DNA of 64,000 bases, taken from the sequence record OZ035773.1; one strand, written 5' to 3'. The notes below the pieces were generated by a model, which had not been told where the DNA came from, searched no databases, and saw only the letters and a program-made list of their open reading frames with translations. The position numbers and the translations under genes were made by a program. This document shows, in pieces, positions 10,871-16,533 of this stretch (position 1 is the stretch's first letter; each line of letters begins with the position of its first letter). This DNA comes from Justusliebigvirus VEcB.

Positions 10871-10884
10871 GTTTACTCCTTTGT

Positions 10885-11070
10885 CTATTGTTCTTTCTCA
10901 ACTTTACGCAGTTCATCTCGGCAATTGTTTTGATATTTTTGATCATTTAGTTCCTCATTTGTAAGGACTGTAATTAGTAGTTCATTAACAAGTTTTGGAA
11001 TTGATTTCCCTTCTGCCTTTGCGCGATTTAACAACGCGTTATAAGTTGCAGAGTCAAAATTAATATTCAT
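10885..11070 (-). CDS. putative ribbon-helix-helix (Arc/CopG-like) DNA-binding protein
   Basis: 61 aa; N-terminal ...SATYNALLNRAKAEGKSIPKLVNELL pattern resembles RHH fold; strong SD AAGGAGAAAA. Confidence 0.4.
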   Translation of the reverse strand: MNINFDSATYNALLNRAKAEGKSIPKLVNELLITVLTNEELNDQKYQNNCRDELRKVEKEQ

Positions 11071-11085
11071 TTGGTTTTCTCCTTA

Positions 11086-11442
11086 TTACATCCACAGATT
11101 ATGGAAATACTTAGCAAACAAAATACGACCTTCTAAACGATCTTGCCGCTGTTTTTCATTAACTTCTTCTGGTGGAGTTAAATCCTTAAAAGAGGACTCC
11201 ATTTTTTCAAGAATTTCTAGCCAGTGTTCTGCTGCTCGTTCTTCCATATAAGGTAGATAGTCACCTTTAGCGTGTGGGTACATCCGACGAAGTAACCCAC
11301 TAGGAATTTTAACATTGTTTGTGGCTATCACTTTTGCACGATATGCAGAAAGTGCATTGTAGATCAGTTTACTTAGTGTCACATCCAGATCAAGAAGATC
11401 ACTCTCTTCAAATTGAATTTCATCGTGTACAATTTTCATCAT
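11086..11442 (-). CDS. hypothetical protein (118 aa)
   Basis: Track ORF; SD GGGAGAAGG. Confidence 0.5.
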   Translation of the reverse strand: MMKIVHDEIQFEESDLLDLDVTLSKLIYNALSAYRAKVIATNNVKIPSGLLRRMYPHAKGDYLPYMEERAAEHWLEILEKMESSFKDLTPPEEVNEKQRQDRLEGRILFAKYFHNLWM

Positions 11443-11723
11443 GCCTTCTCCCGATCTGCGTCTAATTTCAACAAGAAAGCTGTATACTCTTCCGAACCTT
11501 GGTGTAAAAACATGCGATAAGAGCTTACCAGTTTCTTCGTTGTTGTATAACGTTCCATTTCCCCAACAACACCTCCACCCAGTGTGTAGAGCACAACACC
11601 CTCAAACCCAACATGAGTTACTACTTCAACCAAATCTGTGTTATCCCAATGGTAGTTAGGTGACACAATAAGATCGCCAACTGCCAGTTTAATGTTTGCT
11701 GCTTCGTCTTGTGAATAGTACAT
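11439..11723 (-). CDS. hypothetical protein (94 aa)
   Basis: Track ORF; SD GAGAGGAGAA. Confidence 0.5.
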   Translation of the reverse strand: MYYSQDEAANIKLAVGDLIVSPNYHWDNTDLVEVVTHVGFEGVVLYTLGGGVVGEMERYTTTKKLVSSYRMFLHQGSEEYTAFLLKLDADREKA

Positions 11724-11735
11724 TTTGTTCTCCTC

Positions 11736-12026
11736 TCACATTAAGACACGTTTTGTACCGATGGGAGCATTGTCGAACATGTTTATCACTTTGTCAAGTT
11801 TGTGTATTAACTCGTTCGTAATGTTCCACTCTTTGTATGATCTCCATTGTTTCTTATTCTCACCTACCTGGTGTAAAACTTTGATTGGTGCATTCAAACG
11901 TACATTGCGTTCTTTGTCCTCTTCAAAAGAGGCTAACCATTTTTCGTTATGCCCATGAACAGCAATAATAATGCCAAAACCATCAAAAGTTTCTGTAATA
12001 TTCTTAGTTGCTAGTGTGATGTTCAT
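11736..12026 (-). CDS. hypothetical protein (96 aa); first gene of minus-strand arm
   Basis: Track ORF; SD AAGAGG. Confidence 0.5.
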   Translation of the reverse strand: MNITLATKNITETFDGFGIIIAVHGHNEKWLASFEEDKERNVRLNAPIKVLHQVGENKKQWRSYKEWNITNELIHKLDKVINMFDNAPIGTKRVLM

Positions 12027-12085
12027 ATCTAACCTCTTTTGTTACGATGCACACAGAGTACCAGAAATTAATTTCAGATCAAGTA

Positions 12086-12113
12086 TTGACATACTGTTTT
12101 ATTGTGCTAATCT
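12086..12113 (+). promoter_or_regulatory. sigma70-like promoter for the plus-strand island
   Basis: TTGACA, 16-17 nt spacer, TAATCT; located in divergent intergenic region. Confidence 0.4.
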
Positions 12114-12145
12114 TAATGCATACACAAATGAGAGGAGATAAACGA

Positions 12146-12697
12146 ATGCAAAACATCGATCTGACTTGGATAGAAGCCAAAGAAGCAATGTTAAAAGGCA
12201 AACGCGTTAAACATAAATACTTTTGCGAAGGAGAATGGTTTGAAATGCGTAACCGATCCATTGTAGATGAAAAAGGGAATGACATGCAACAATGGTTCAA
12301 AAATGAAATTTGGCAGGGAACAGGTTGGTCTGTAGTTGAAGAGCAGCCTAGCTCAAGCGCACTGTTTAGCCCTATTATGTATTGCGTTATCGGTGCTTTA
12401 GTTGTTGATCACGGGATTGCAGTGGAAAAAGAATGCTGGGAAGAGGTATCTTTTTTCAACCTGGCTTCTTATGCAAAAAGCCATATGCACTTGTTTGAAG
12501 AAGGGGATGAATTTGTTCTTCGTATGCGATATGGCAAAGAATTCAGATTACCACTTGATAATGATGTAGACACTGTTGTAAAATGGTTAGCAGAGCATTA
12601 CGCTTACGATGCAATTTGTGGTCGCAGCTTCGGCAACGAACGCTGGGACATGATTTGTGAAAAATATGATTTTGAGCCGGAGTACGGAGTTTTATAA
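12146..12697 (+). CDS. DUF2829 (Tad2-like) domain protein with C-terminal extension
   Basis: From ATG 12146 (SD GAGGAGA): MQNIDLTWIEAKEAMLKGKRVKHKYFCEGEWFEM...WSVVEE matches DUF2829 hallmark pattern; track ORF starts 33 codons upstream without RBS. Confidence 0.55.
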   Translation: MQNIDLTWIEAKEAMLKGKRVKHKYFCEGEWFEMRNRSIVDEKGNDMQQWFKNEIWQGTGWSVVEEQPSSSALFSPIMYCVIGALVVDHGIAVEKECWEEVSFFNLASYAKSHMHLFEEGDEFVLRMRYGKEFRLPLDNDVDTVVKWLAEHYAYDAICGRSFGNERWDMICEKYDFEPEYGVL

Positions 12698-12948
12698 TGT
12701 TAAGTATCACACCTAAAATGATAACAGAAGACGAAGCAGACTTTATTTTCAAATGTGGACGTGTATGGAGAGAATTCACAAAAGGAAATGAAGTGGTTGT
12801 TGTTGTTGAACACAAGATATCTATTCAGGATCTGTTTGGACAATATGTTGATGTTATTAAATTAGGTATTGACAAGGGTTTAGTTGAGGTGTTAACATTA
12901 GATCAAGTTGAAGCAGAGCACCTCGATAAAGTGGTGGTTGAATTTTAA
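12697..12948 (+). CDS. hypothetical protein (83 aa)
   Basis: Track ORF; start overlaps previous stop. Confidence 0.45.
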   Translation: MLSITPKMITEDEADFIFKCGRVWREFTKGNEVVVVVEHKISIQDLFGQYVDVIKLGIDKGLVEVLTLDQVEAEHLDKVVVEF

Positions 12949-12968
12949 AATACAGACGGGAGAAAGGT

Positions 12969-13142
12969 ATGAGTTTCTTTGTTACAGTATTTATGGCTAT
13001 CTGGATTGTAGTCTCACTCGTTCTTTTCCTGGTGGGTTGTCTGGAAGAGATTAAGAAAGCGGTTATTTGCGGTTTCTTTGGCTTTATTATCTCTCCTGCC
13101 TGGATGTGGTTCTTCATTATGATTGGTTTCCTTAAAAGGTAA
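12969..13142 (+). CDS. small membrane protein (57 aa), below track threshold
   Basis: Hand-translated MSFFVTVFMAIWIVVSLVLFLVGCLEEIKKAVICGFFGFIISPAWMWFFIMIGFLKR; SD GGGAGAAAGG. Confidence 0.45.
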   Translation: MSFFVTVFMAIWIVVSLVLFLVGCLEEIKKAVICGFFGFIISPAWMWFFIMIGFLKR

Positions 13143-13156
13143 GTGAGGAATAAAGA

Positions 13157-13594
13157 ATGAGTAAAACAAACGCAATCGCAGATAAAGCAACGGATGTACT
13201 TCTGAACATGGTTAACGTCACTATTCAAACAATGAGTGATGTTGTGGAGTTTGGAAAACAACAAATTCCAGAAGTAATCCATCAATTATTAGTGTGGAAA
13301 GCAGTATCCGCAGGTTTATGGCAACTTTTTAGTATTTGCTTTATGTTTATTACTTTTATTGCTGTGCGGAACCTCGTAAAAGCAATTAAAGATAAAGAAT
13401 GCCTGTGGTCACGAGATCGCTATGGTGAAGTATCTGCTTTACCTATTGTTGGTCTTGTTGTCTGTGCTTTCTTTTTCTTTTTAGGATTTGTTATTTTCTT
13501 TTCGAATTTTGATTGGCTAAAAATTATTATTGCACCAAAAGTGTATCTGATTGAATTTGCTGCTGATTTAATTCGTTCATCTCAACAAAGATAA
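13157..13594 (+). CDS. membrane protein (145 aa, at least 2 TM segments)
   Basis: Track ORF; SD GTGAGGAA; long hydrophobic stretches. Confidence 0.55.
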   Translation: MSKTNAIADKATDVLLNMVNVTIQTMSDVVEFGKQQIPEVIHQLLVWKAVSAGLWQLFSICFMFITFIAVRNLVKAIKDKECLWSRDRYGEVSALPIVGLVVCAFFFFLGFVIFFSNFDWLKIIIAPKVYLIEFAADLIRSSQQR

Positions 13595-13606
13595 AAGGGG
13601 GTTAAA

Positions 13607-14734
13607 ATGAAATACACGATTTATGGTGATATTGTAAGTGTAAATAAAGATATGGGCGTGGAATCTAACTATCTTCCACCTGGATTCTATACTGTTAGTC
13701 GTGATCCCCTTGGCAATTACTTTTTAAGCCGTGGTAATCTAACAGGTGTACCGGATGTTCTGTATGGTGAAACAGAAAAACGAGCAAATCACGTTATTCG
13801 TACATTCCATCGCCGGAGTGCACAAGGTAAAAACACAGGCTTGCTTCTGACAGGAACTAAGGGTAGTGGTAAAACTATGTTAGCCAAACTCATTAGTCGT
13901 GACCTTGTAGAAGAAGGTATTCCAACTATTATGGTTACTCAAGCCTACAGTGATGCTAATTTCATTGAACTTATTAGCAAGATCACAGACAAAGCAGTGA
14001 TTATTTTTGATGAATTTGATAAAGTATATGAGAAGAAACAAGATCAAGAAGCACTTCTCACTTTGTTAGATGGTACTGGCAGTGGTAATAAACTGTTTAT
14101 TCTAACTAAAAACAGTGGCTTTATCTCTGAATTCTTTCTAAATCGTCCTAGTCGTGTGTTTTATAATTTTAATTATGATAAAATCTCACTAGAAACTATG
14201 ATTGACTATTTAGATAAAAACCTGGATAACAAAGCACACTTTGATAATTTCCAAAGGCTTTGGGATGTAAGTTTAGAGTTGTCCTTTGATGTGATCCAAG
14301 GTATAGTAGAAGAACTTAATTTCTACCCTGATTTATCCTTTAAAGAATGCATCTCTATGATGGGCGTTTCTTTGGGTGGTGGTAATAAGTGGGATATCAG
14401 CAGCGTTGTTATTAATGGGAAACTTCAGAAAGTTAGCTGGGTATCTAGTTGGCATAACTTCACACCTGCAATCTTTTTAGGTGGCTCGTGCACACTAGAC
14501 GTGTACTTGTCATCTCCAAGTGATGCAGATTCTAAAGAAGCCCTTGCTAATAGCTCTTACGTGGTTTTTGATGATGAAGGAGATGCTCGAATTCCATTGA
14601 ATGCGACAAAAATGAAAGCAGATCTTATTACAGGCGGTAAAATCGTTGTGTTTAGTGATGATCCAGAAGATTCTTTCCGTATTGTTCTGGAACCAACTAT
14701 CACCAATGGTGCAACTTTGGCAAGCGTGTTTTAA
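13607..14734 (+). CDS. AAA+/P-loop ATPase (DnaC/IstB-like core)
   Basis: Walker A LLLTGTKGSGKTMLAK, Walker B VIIFDEFDK; SD AAAGGGGG. Confidence 0.65.
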   Translation: MKYTIYGDIVSVNKDMGVESNYLPPGFYTVSRDPLGNYFLSRGNLTGVPDVLYGETEKRANHVIRTFHRRSAQGKNTGLLLTGTKGSGKTMLAKLISRDLVEEGIPTIMVTQAYSDANFIELISKITDKAVIIFDEFDKVYEKKQDQEALLTLLDGTGSGNKLFILTKNSGFISEFFLNRPSRVFYNFNYDKISLETMIDYLDKNLDNKAHFDNFQRLWDVSLELSFDVIQGIVEELNFYPDLSFKECISMMGVSLGGGNKWDISSVVINGKLQKVSWVSSWHNFTPAIFLGGSCTLDVYLSSPSDADSKEALANSSYVVFDDEGDARIPLNATKMKADLITGGKIVVFSDDPEDSFRIVLEPTITNGATLASVF

Positions 14735-14808: not shown

Positions 14809-15981
14809 ATGACAGCACCAAAATCATGGGAACAATATAAAGAAGAATTAACACCCCTTGCTAAAAATCGCAATATTCAAATCCTGGGTTATGTTGGTGA
14901 ATGGAAAGGGAACAAGACTAAACTTAAGCTATCTTGCCCTAAACATGGAGAGTGGAACACCACGAACATTAATGATTTTAAGAAGGGACGTGGTTGTCCT
15001 ATCTGTTCTGGTAAGAAGCCGTTAACATGGGAAACAGAATTGCCGATCTTGGAAGAGATAGCACAGAAGAGGGGGTATCAGGTGTTAGGGTACGTGGGAG
15101 AATGGAAAGGGAATAAAACAAAACTTGATTTGTTGTGTCATTGTGGTAATAAATGGGATACTACAAGTATTAACAATTTTAAACGTGGTAGCGGTTGTCC
15201 ACAATGTAAGAGGGAGAGACAAACAATGTCCGACGATCAACATATTGCAGATTTCTTTTCTACAGGGGAATTTAAGGAAGGCACTATCTTCACCAATACA
15301 GGGAAACGTAACAAGCGTGATGCAGTATGGATGGTTGAGTGTCCTGTTTGCTCCCATGATGAATATGTTCAAGCAGGTGTTTGTGATGGTAAATTTTACT
15401 CTGCAGGACATAACCTTAAACAAGGGTATATTCCGTGTCGTTGTGGGAACTATCAGTATACAGAAGACCAGATCACCTATAGGGTAAAAAAGGAAGTAGA
15501 AGGGAAAGGGTATGTCTGGGTAGATTGGATTACCAAACCATCTTCTATAGGTAAGTTTAAATATCTTTGTCTTGTGCATGGGGAGCAGATAGGGAGTGCT
15601 CGTAATTTATTAAGCCTCGGTCAAGGTTGTCCACAGTGTGCTGGTCATAGTCAGCAGCAATTGTATGTTAATGTTGTTAAAGATAATGGTATTATAGTTG
15701 CTCTTAAGTTTGGTATATCTAAAGATAGCGATAGACGATTAAACGGTCAAAATAGCCGTAATCTGTTTTTTATGGAGCGTATTTGTTTATATGATTTTAG
15801 CACAGTGAAACAATGTAGGGCTGCTGAAAGAGCTATAAAGAAAAAATTAAAAACTGGTATTTTAACGGCAAGAGAGTTGAAAGATGGTTATACAGAAACA
15901 GTAAGTGTTTCTGATTTGGAAAATCTTCAAAAAATTATTACACAATATGGTGGCAAATTAGTATACAGTAAGGAGGTGTAA
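14809..15981 (+). CDS. zinc-ribbon repeat protein with C-terminal GIY-YIG-like (T5orf172-type) domain; putative nuclease
   Basis: Four repeats of C-x-x-(C/H)...G-x-G-C-P-x-C; C-terminus LYVNVV...KFGIS.D..RL...AERAIKKKL resembles T5orf172/GIY-YIG; SD AAGAGGAG. Confidence 0.5.
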   Translation: MTAPKSWEQYKEELTPLAKNRNIQILGYVGEWKGNKTKLKLSCPKHGEWNTTNINDFKKGRGCPICSGKKPLTWETELPILEEIAQKRGYQVLGYVGEWKGNKTKLDLLCHCGNKWDTTSINNFKRGSGCPQCKRERQTMSDDQHIADFFSTGEFKEGTIFTNTGKRNKRDAVWMVECPVCSHDEYVQAGVCDGKFYSAGHNLKQGYIPCRCGNYQYTEDQITYRVKKEVEGKGYVWVDWITKPSSIGKFKYLCLVHGEQIGSARNLLSLGQGCPQCAGHSQQQLYVNVVKDNGIIVALKFGISKDSDRRLNGQNSRNLFFMERICLYDFSTVKQCRAAERAIKKKLKTGILTARELKDGYTETVSVSDLENLQKIITQYGGKLVYSKEV

Positions 15982-16533
15982 ATGCGGATTACTGATAAGT
16001 ATGTGTTCTTCTTCTCGGCAAAAGATGAATTTAGCAACTGGTATCTATCATCTTTTATTGAACCTTTAGCTCCCAAGTATAATAATTCTATTACAAGTTC
16101 TGTTGAATTTACTTGTGTGGAACAATATATGATGTGGAGAAAAGCATGTTTGTTTTATGATTACAACATTGCATCTTCTATTTTAACCGGAGATCTAAGA
16201 TATACAGGAGAAAAAGAACAGGCATATTATAAGCGACTAGGTAGATTAGTTAAAGATTACGATGAAGCTACTTGGACTTCTTTACGGGAGAAGATTGTCA
16301 AGCGTGGTTTGTATCTTAAATACACACAAAATGAAGATCTCAAAAATAAACTTATAGCTTACGCAGATAAGGAGTTTGTAGAAGCAAGCCCTTATGATTC
16401 TATTTATGGTATCAAAATTGGGATGTGGGATCGGGACGTGGAAAATAAGGATTGTTGGAAAGGACAAAATCTTTTAGGAAAATGGCATACAGACCTTGCT
16501 GTTTATCTAAAAGCACAATCTGATATTTCCTGA
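15982..16533 (+). CDS. NADAR (YbiA-like, DUF1768) domain protein
   Basis: FFFSAKDEFSNWYLS...EQYMMWRKA...KRLGRLV...ASPYDSIYGIKIG...WKGQNLLGK match NADAR signature blocks; SD AGGAGGTG. Confidence 0.65.
   Translation: MRITDKYVFFFSAKDEFSNWYLSSFIEPLAPKYNNSITSSVEFTCVEQYMMWRKACLFYDYNIASSILTGDLRYTGEKEQAYYKRLGRLVKDYDEATWTSLREKIVKRGLYLKYTQNEDLKNKLIAYADKEFVEASPYDSIYGIKIGMWDRDVENKDCWKGQNLLGKWHTDLAVYLKAQSDIS

Follow-up and report, generated by a model that had tools for sequence, protein, structure and literature searches.

The gene gp217, read here from a 64,000-nucleotide stretch of sequence record OZ035773.1 (genus Justusliebigvirus; the whole stretch is referred to as the window), encodes a 183-aa protein of two modules, an N-terminal one (N module) predicted to adopt the fold of the phage protein Tad2 and a C-terminal one (C module) predicted to resemble small secretion chaperones. 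We propose, with a probability of about 55%, that gp217 is a chimeric accessory protein of the phi92-clade phages, an inversion-generated fusion of a minimal Tad2-fold binder and a chaperone-like module, plausibly acting in counter-defence. Literature searches returned no description of a minimal Tad2-like family or of phi92 gp217.

Gene structure and origin of the fusion

The open reading frame (ORF) of gp217 occupies positions 12146..12697 on the (+) strand, in exact agreement with the first-pass annotation of the window, and starts with ATG. A Shine–Dalgarno sequence, AGGAG, lies 8 nt 5' of the ATG (12133-12137, +); the same ribosome-binding site (RBS) is annotated in phage phi92, whose annotation also uses the start corresponding to the 12146 ATG. 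The TAA stop codon (12695-12697) overlaps the ATG of the next gene, a gp218 homolog. A longer reading of 216 aa, from an ATG at 12047, was rejected: it has no RBS, and its start would precede a promoter-like TTGACA at 12086.

The encoded protein is 97% identical to Phi92_gp217, annotated as a "conserved hypothetical protein", and over the region 11000-14000 phages PaulScherrer and phi92 (Stephanstirmvirinae, Justusliebigvirus; phi92-like E. coli myophages) share 98.6-98.8% identity with the window. Fused gp217 is intact and full length in 31 phage records, with identities of 93-99.5%. Pairwise ratios of nonsynonymous to synonymous substitution rates (dN/dS) remained below 1 in each module (0.2-0.4 in residues 1-65, 0.04-0.24 in residues 73-183), as estimated from only ~20 substitutions. 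The gene is real and maintained. Four unannotated records of ~146 kb labeled "Campylobacter phage" (MG065639, MG065645, MG065656, MG065689) are 98.7% identical to the region; they probably represent mislabeled hosts or contaminating coliphages.

The N module comprises residues 1-65 (12146..12340, +), a minimal Tad2/AcrIIA7-fold domain according to the models described below. It is followed by a linker of residues 66-72 (EQPSSSA; 12341..12361, +) and by the C module, residues 73-183 and the stop codon (12362..12697, +), a predicted acidic domain of secretion-chaperone/YbjN-like fold. The first-pass annotation had divided the protein correctly, into ~70 N-terminal aa and ~110 extra residues. It had taken the latter for an extension of a Tad2-like protein; they do form a separate added module, but not an elaboration of Tad2, belonging rather to an independent phage gene family of standalone proteins of ~110 aa that was joined by a lineage-specific inversion.

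The two modules match different PHROG families, all annotated there as "unknown function". Residues 4-65 match phrog_3474 (a 64-position profile, E 2.5e-26) and residues 1-69 match phrog_22208 (E 6.2e-28), while residues 73-182 match phrog_11295 (a 110-position profile, E 1.4e-49). A phmmer search of the PDB with the single gp217 sequence gave nothing meaningful, and a word-indexed protein search retrieved the phi92 ortholog alone. An exhaustive HMMER search of 1.84 billion representatives returned 45 proteins. About 30 of the 45 match the N part only and are mostly standalone proteins of 59-78 aa; ~10 match the C part only and are nearly all standalone, with lengths of 104-114 aa. A search of the window revealed no canonical Tad2 and no second copy of either module.

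The phrog_3474 family, to which the N module belongs, is widespread in lytic phages of Enterobacteria, and N modules are found elsewhere with other partners: an extension of ~80 aa with a basic tail, KGKGHNKLKKGKKK (P0003, P0011, P0013 and gp163 of phage ESCO5), or a second N-like repeat (P0022). In P0037 the N module stands at the C terminus of a larger protein. Three large proteins returned by the HMMER search, P0007 (5991 aa), P0025 and P0028, were considered as tandem N-domain arrays and rejected, being unrelated repeat proteins in which weak "CEGEW..."-type matches sum. The basic tail (H-K-L-Y-K-G-K-G-H-N-K-L-K-K-G-K-K-K) is conserved in Phapecoctavirus and other phages (ESCO5 1307-1750, -; P0003, P0011, P0013, P0043), and its composition hints at contact with nucleic acid or membrane.

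The N and C modules are separate genes in phage VEcB (same genus), in ESCO5 (Phapecoctavirus) and in Klebsiella phage phi1_175008 (same subfamily). In this split arrangement, the N gene (-) is divergent from a (+) run consisting of a DUF7325 gene, in some cases a phage-tudor gene, a gene for a 118-aa protein, in some cases a small membrane protein gene, and the C gene, after which come the homologs of gp218-gp221. In the window, the three intervening genes lie on the (-) strand in reversed order, and the N part (+) stands directly 5' of the C part.

Comparisons by tblastn and blastn, together with the annotations, delimit a segment of ~1.25 kb (11091..12340) that is inverted relative to VEcB, ESCO5 and phi1_175008. 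It contains the genes for the 118-aa protein, the Phage_tudor protein (94 aa) and the DUF7325 protein (96 aa), all on the (-) strand, then the divergent intergenic region and the N module. At the nucleotide level, 11091-12247 is inverted relative to VEcB and 11382-12340 relative to ESCO5, and the flanks are collinear. Nucleotide homology to the ESCO5 N gene stops at 12340, the end of the residue 65 codon; that to the standalone C genes sets in at 12362, with CTG (Leu73) in the place of their ATG start. The 21 nt between these points (12341..12361), which encode EQPSSSA and mark the fusion junction, match neither parental gene.

The direct counterparts of the two halves in the sister phages are ESCO5 gp163 (147 aa, phrog_22208) and gp158 (112 aa, phrog_11295), and VEcB_213 and VEcB_216. 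They are 58-59% identical to gp217 in the N part and 61-67% in the C part, and occupy the same locus, adjoining the gp218-gp221 homologs. They differ from gp217 in lying on opposite strands, with a C gene that has its own RBS and ATG and, in ESCO5, an N gene with the basic-tailed extension. This extension of the Phapecoctavirus N domain was lost in the phi92 fusion, and the VEcB N gene is a degraded remnant of 59 aa with an internal deletion.

Because the split state is common to another genus and to the distant Klebsiella member, gene order indicates that the fusion in the phi92 clade is the derived state, made by an inversion of ~1.25 kb at a divergent gene junction. The inversion linked the N domain to the C gene at its initial codon, with ATG becoming CTG.

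Folds of the two modules and the putative ligand site

At the sequence level, the relationship of the N module to Tad2 is faint. The first-pass annotation had reported a DUF2829 pattern, and the motifs that it listed are present (K17-G-K-R-V-K-H23, W50, W56, W61-S-V-V-E-E66). The assignment did not hold at the Pfam level, as gp217 has no match to PF11195 (DUF2829) even at E ≤ 1; it did hold at the fold level. Weak PF11195 matches were found in 5 of 31 N-family representatives (best E 0.0028). A Tad2-family hidden Markov model (HMM) of our own, built from 43 true PF11195 proteins, detected nothing at E ≤ 1 among the six-frame ORFs of the 64-kb window. The top PDB match of the N-family profile was SptTad2 (8wjd, E 0.094), through the N-terminal helix motif only. 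Alignment of the N family with the Tad2 profile by hhalign gave a probability of 90-91% (E ~1e-6), confident over the first 26 columns only. One PHROG profile, phrog_2709, is shared: SPO1 Tad2 matches it over its full length (9e-10), gp217 with 1.9e-4 and ESCO5 gp163 with 7.7e-5, which makes it an apparent bridge between the Tad2 and N families. As judged by sequence criteria, the N module falls outside the Tad2/DUF2829 family.

Structure prediction, a check that the first-pass annotation had recommended, yielded a Tad2 fold for residues 1-65. The AlphaFold2 model, computed from 30 N-family sequences without Tad2 sequences or templates, had a mean predicted local distance difference test score (pLDDT) of 91.7. 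It contains a helix (8-16), three strands (20-23, 32-35, 38-41), a short helix (55-58) and a further strand (61-64), and thereby has the elements of the Tad2 core fold, namely helix α1, an antiparallel β-sheet and a short C-terminal helix. AcrIIA7 was the best of all fold matches. In the model the Tad2/AcrIIA7 fold is clearly present, and on this basis the N family is best seen as a distinct minimal branch of the Tad2 fold.

Tad2 of phage SPO1 (gp34.65, which we recovered from the SPO1 genome) binds 1''-3' glycocyclic ADP-ribose (gcADPR) through W25, N26, W73 and D79; T78, I63 and T65 contact the adenine, and N26, D67, H71, W73, S76 and D79 coordinate water. The pocket sits between the protomers of a tetramer and consists of the β1-β2 loop together with the C-terminal helix and its preceding loop. 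An insertion after β2 holds the dimeric unit together, and in HgmTad2 it also forms a cyclic-dinucleotide (CDN) pocket. The residues invariant in our 43 Tad2 sequences are A10, K15, R22, W25, N26, G27, K28, M30, T65, W73, S76, Q77, D79, L81, A82, D84 and W85.

SPO1 positions were mapped onto gp217 by hhalign. W25 corresponds to F26, invariant in the N family, and N26 to C27, which is T, C or S across the family. The remaining correspondences are of low confidence: T65 to E42, D67 to G44, H71 to Q48, W73 to W50, S76 to N53, Q77 to a gap, T78 to E54, D79 to I55 and W85 to W61. The GWNGK motif of the β1-β2 loop is absent, gp217 having F26-C27-E28-G29 there and the N family (Y/H)F(T/C)xxE. Also absent is the C-terminal motif W73...S76-Q77-T78-D79-x-L-A-x-D-W85 (SQTDxLAxDW); in its place, within the low-confidence part of the alignment, is the N-family consensus GExWQxxGW. 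Among the SPO1 ligand contacts, only aromatic positions are retained, as F26 and W50, the latter at low confidence. The canonical gcADPR chemistry thus appears not to be preserved in the N module. The suggestion of the first-pass annotation that the protein is a sponge for such signals fails on this point, the Tad2 pocket residues being mostly replaced in gp217.

The insertion of 23-40 aa that forms the Tad2 dimer interface is likewise absent, with a gap of ~23 residues relative to SPO1 Tad2 in the hhalign alignment of gp217 and of the whole N family. All solved Tad2 and AcrIIA7 chains carry it, and AcrIIA7/HgmTad2 are thereby longer than SPO1 Tad2. Compared with Tad2 proteins (SPO1 gp34.65, 8sme; ModTad2, 9eib and 8v3e; SptTad2, 8wjd), which have 86-104 aa, the N module has ~65 aa, lacks the β2-β3/β5 insertion with its dimer interface and CDN pocket, scores below all Pfam thresholds and is fused to a second module.

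Conservation in the N family has its own signature, consisting of A11, G18, H23, F26, E30, E42, G44, W50, E54, W56-Q57 and G60-W61. Six of these residues (F26, E30, W50, E54, W56, Q57) fall in the elements that build the gcADPR pocket of Tad2. Because conservation concentrates in these elements, a ligand-binding role at the equivalent site is favored.

The C module was modeled from 15 sequences. The AlphaFold2 model of residues 69-183 had a pLDDT of 93.7 and an α-β5-α-α layout, the α-β5-α(-α) two-layer fold type of small acidic, chaperone- or YbjN-like proteins; the isoelectric point (pI) of the module is 4.6. Its fold relatives include the YbjN-family proteins DR_1245 and AmyR, and weaker fold matches were obtained to frataxin, the MotA C-terminal domain and an immunity protein. 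A search of the viral structures in BFVD returned only uncharacterized proteins of Escherichia, Vibrio and Tenacibaculum phages. At the sequence level, a Pfam search with the 15 C-family proteins at a cutoff as loose as E ≤ 10 gave no family that more than one of them matched and no chaperone or YbjN family, and nothing in the PDB scored below E 0.7.

The C module has no sequence or Pfam relationship to class I type III secretion chaperones (ShcF/AvrPphF ORF1 1s28, ExsC, SpcS, Spa15, CesT family) or to YbjN proteins (DR_1245, AmyR). Unlike the secretion chaperones, it is encoded by lytic phages without a secretion system, and it has a polar motif of its own, KSH...RY...GRxFGN...W, which the chaperones lack. 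The corresponding loop residues K111, S112, H113, R128, Y129, G159, R160 and W167 are invariant or nearly so. The module is for now best described as a "small acidic chaperone-like adaptor".

Proposed function and competing explanations

We propose that the N module most likely still forms oligomers that bind a small ligand derived from a nucleotide. Binding would take place in the counterpart of the Tad2 gcADPR pocket, formed by the β1-β2 loop with F26 and E30, by W50, and by the short helix with W56 and Q57; because the pocket chemistry differs, the ligand is probably other than 1''-3' gcADPR. The C module would most likely serve as a dimer that binds proteins or raises valency, or else act as a second inhibitor in its own right. 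That the sister phages have the two halves as separate genes makes it probable that each has kept a function of its own. A counter-defence or host-takeover role of gp217 is likely.

Tad2 homologs sequester 1''-3' and 1''-2' gcADPR, His-ADPR, N7-cADPR, cyclic CMP and UMP (cCMP/cUMP) and CDNs, and AcrIIA7, with the same fold, sequesters tracrRNA. The Tad2 fold is thus a versatile oligomeric binder, and an accessory domain on such a core has a precedent in the 48-aa head domain of pdAcrIIA7, which masks the tracrRNA sequestration. The likeness of the gp217 N module to these proteins is so far one of shape only.

Several points weigh against our proposal. gp217 has no match in Pfam, NCBIfam or PADLOC, and the dN/dS estimates draw on few substitutions. 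The mapping of the pocket comes from the hhalign alignment and is of low confidence after column 27. The polar ligand contacts of Tad2 (N26, D79, T78, S76, H71, D67) are replaced in gp217, and with the insertion that forms the dimer missing as well, the tetramer on which the Tad2 pockets depend may not assemble. Co-location of the N and C genes within Stephanstirmvirinae is simple synteny. A C-family gene is also present in two unrelated phage contigs from metagenomes, neither of which has an N-family or Tad2 gene in the available 1.6-8 kb to either side of it. In these two contigs there is no independent co-occurrence outside the subfamily, and therefore no independent support for a functional link between N and C. 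The fusion could be a neutral accident.

This last possibility is the alternative that survives best, although we consider it unlikely. In this view an inversion in an accessory region that is plastic would have produced the fusion as a neutral or near-neutral side effect, and the Tad2-like fold would be only a small stable scaffold for a protein-protein interaction that has nothing to do with immune signaling, for example in host takeover or regulation. The region is indeed mosaic, with a variably present tudor gene and 61-aa ORF and a degraded N remnant in VEcB; the N domain is found with many different partners; no family match is related to defence; and the two modules do not co-occur in the two contigs from outside the subfamily. 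However, the site of fusion coincides exactly with the boundary between the domains and has a Ser/Pro linker in frame, the fused gene is intact in 31 genomes with dN/dS of 0.04-0.4, and N-family conservation lies in surface loops equivalent to the Tad2 pocket, not only in the core.

A more specific form of our proposal, which we regard as speculative and rather improbable, is that the N family is a minimal branch of Tad2 sponges for a different immune signal, with a pocket of F26, E30, E42, W50, E54 and W56-Q57. gp217 would then be two-pronged, its C module either dimerizing the sponge or inhibiting a host defence protein.

It is more doubtful still that the N module is an AcrIIA7-like binder of RNA or other nucleic acid whose activity the C module modulates or masks. 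The precedent is AcrIIA7 itself, which binds tracrRNA and is blocked by its extra head domain, and the strongly basic tail of the N domains in sister phages, KGKGHNKLKKGKKK, is compatible with nucleic-acid contact. The basic groove that binds RNA in pdAcrIIA7 lies in the tetramer core (K58, K66, K71, K93, R101). The N family, in contrast, is acidic (median pI 5.25; 5.8 for the N module of gp217), with no conserved basic residues beyond the K/R residues of β1 that are also found in Tad2, and in gp217 the basic tail is gone and a very acidic module has been added. AcrIIA7/HgmTad2 (8kbi, 8wjc; pdAcrIIA7, 9kzr) further differ in having the full Tad2 signature, the long insertion and the tetramer with its basic groove, and the accessory domain of AcrIIA7 is N-terminal, whereas the accessory module of gp217 is C-terminal, has an unrelated fold and is joined to an acidic, minimal N domain. 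To our knowledge, E. coli has no type II CRISPR-Cas9; tracrRNA itself therefore cannot be the target of gp217.

Least probable is a bona fide Tad2 sponge that captures the Thoeris signals 1''-3'/1''-2' gcADPR and has acquired an effector or binding domain: the Tad2 fold, the aromatic pocket positions kept in kind (W25 as F26, W73 as W50), the diversification of Tad2 homologs to other ligands and a NADAR gene 3.3 kb downstream, suggestive of an ADP-ribose-related accessory region, speak for it, but PF11195 and our Tad2-family HMM gave no match, the Tad2-invariant residues R22, W25, N26, G27, K28, T65, S76, Q77, D79, L81, A82 and D84 are mostly replaced, and the dimer-interface insertion is missing.

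Genomic neighborhood and implications

gp217 heads a (+) strand cluster that continues with the gp218-like gene (83 aa), two small membrane proteins, an AAA ATPase, a CapR/T5orf172 endonuclease-like protein and a NADAR-domain protein. Upstream, in the 119-bp divergent intergenic region, a candidate early sigma-70 promoter for a gp217-gp221 operon was read by eye at 12086..12113 (+). It is weak, consisting of TTGACA, a 16-nt spacer and TGcTAATCT, which resembles an extended -10 element. A promoter/terminator scan found nothing above shuffle expectation and did not call the candidate, the -10 hexamer of which agrees with the consensus at 3 of 6 positions. The location of gp217, at a divergent junction and downstream of the promoter-like site, suggests that it is expressed early. 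With its small genes the locus resembles an accessory region, which is in keeping with roles in counter-defence or host takeover but no proof of them.

The NADAR-domain protein (183 aa; PF08719, E 3e-36) is encoded at 15982-16533 on the same (+) strand, 3.3 kb downstream of gp217. NADAR enzymes reverse ADP-ribosylation, including DNA ADP-ribosylation of the DarT type, and the gene is a candidate for an anti-DarTG or ADP-ribose-processing function. The protein encoded at 14809-15981 (+; 390 aa), with three CapR-homology repeats and a T5orf172 domain, is annotated as "endonuclease" in phi92 (gp222) and looks like a homing-endonuclease-like or DNA-binding accessory gene.

Within the inverted segment, the Phage_tudor protein (PF24144, E 8e-26) is encoded at 11439-11723 (-) and the DUF7325 protein (E 7e-20) at 11736-12026 (-). 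The tudor gene is variably present: VEcB lacks it, and so, probably, do the phages whose sequence covers only 88% of the 3-kb query. A 61-aa ORF without a family match (10885-11070, -) is located at the left inversion junction. It is absent from JohannJBalmer and VEcB, in which 10882-11074 of the window has no counterpart, and may be a junction-associated insertion.

If neither half of gp217 is related to defence, the finding amounts to a better annotation of a hypothetical phage protein. The locus offers a clean and datable case in which inversion at a divergent junction fused two genes, and the sister phages with split genes are natural controls for the effect of fusion on function. Few phage sponge families are as widespread as Tad2, and new immune signals continue to be found among the ligands of its members. 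A minimal Tad2 without the insertion and the canonical pocket would extend this family into many enterobacterial phages missed by Pfam and anti-defence annotation, and would show which parts of the fold are dispensable.
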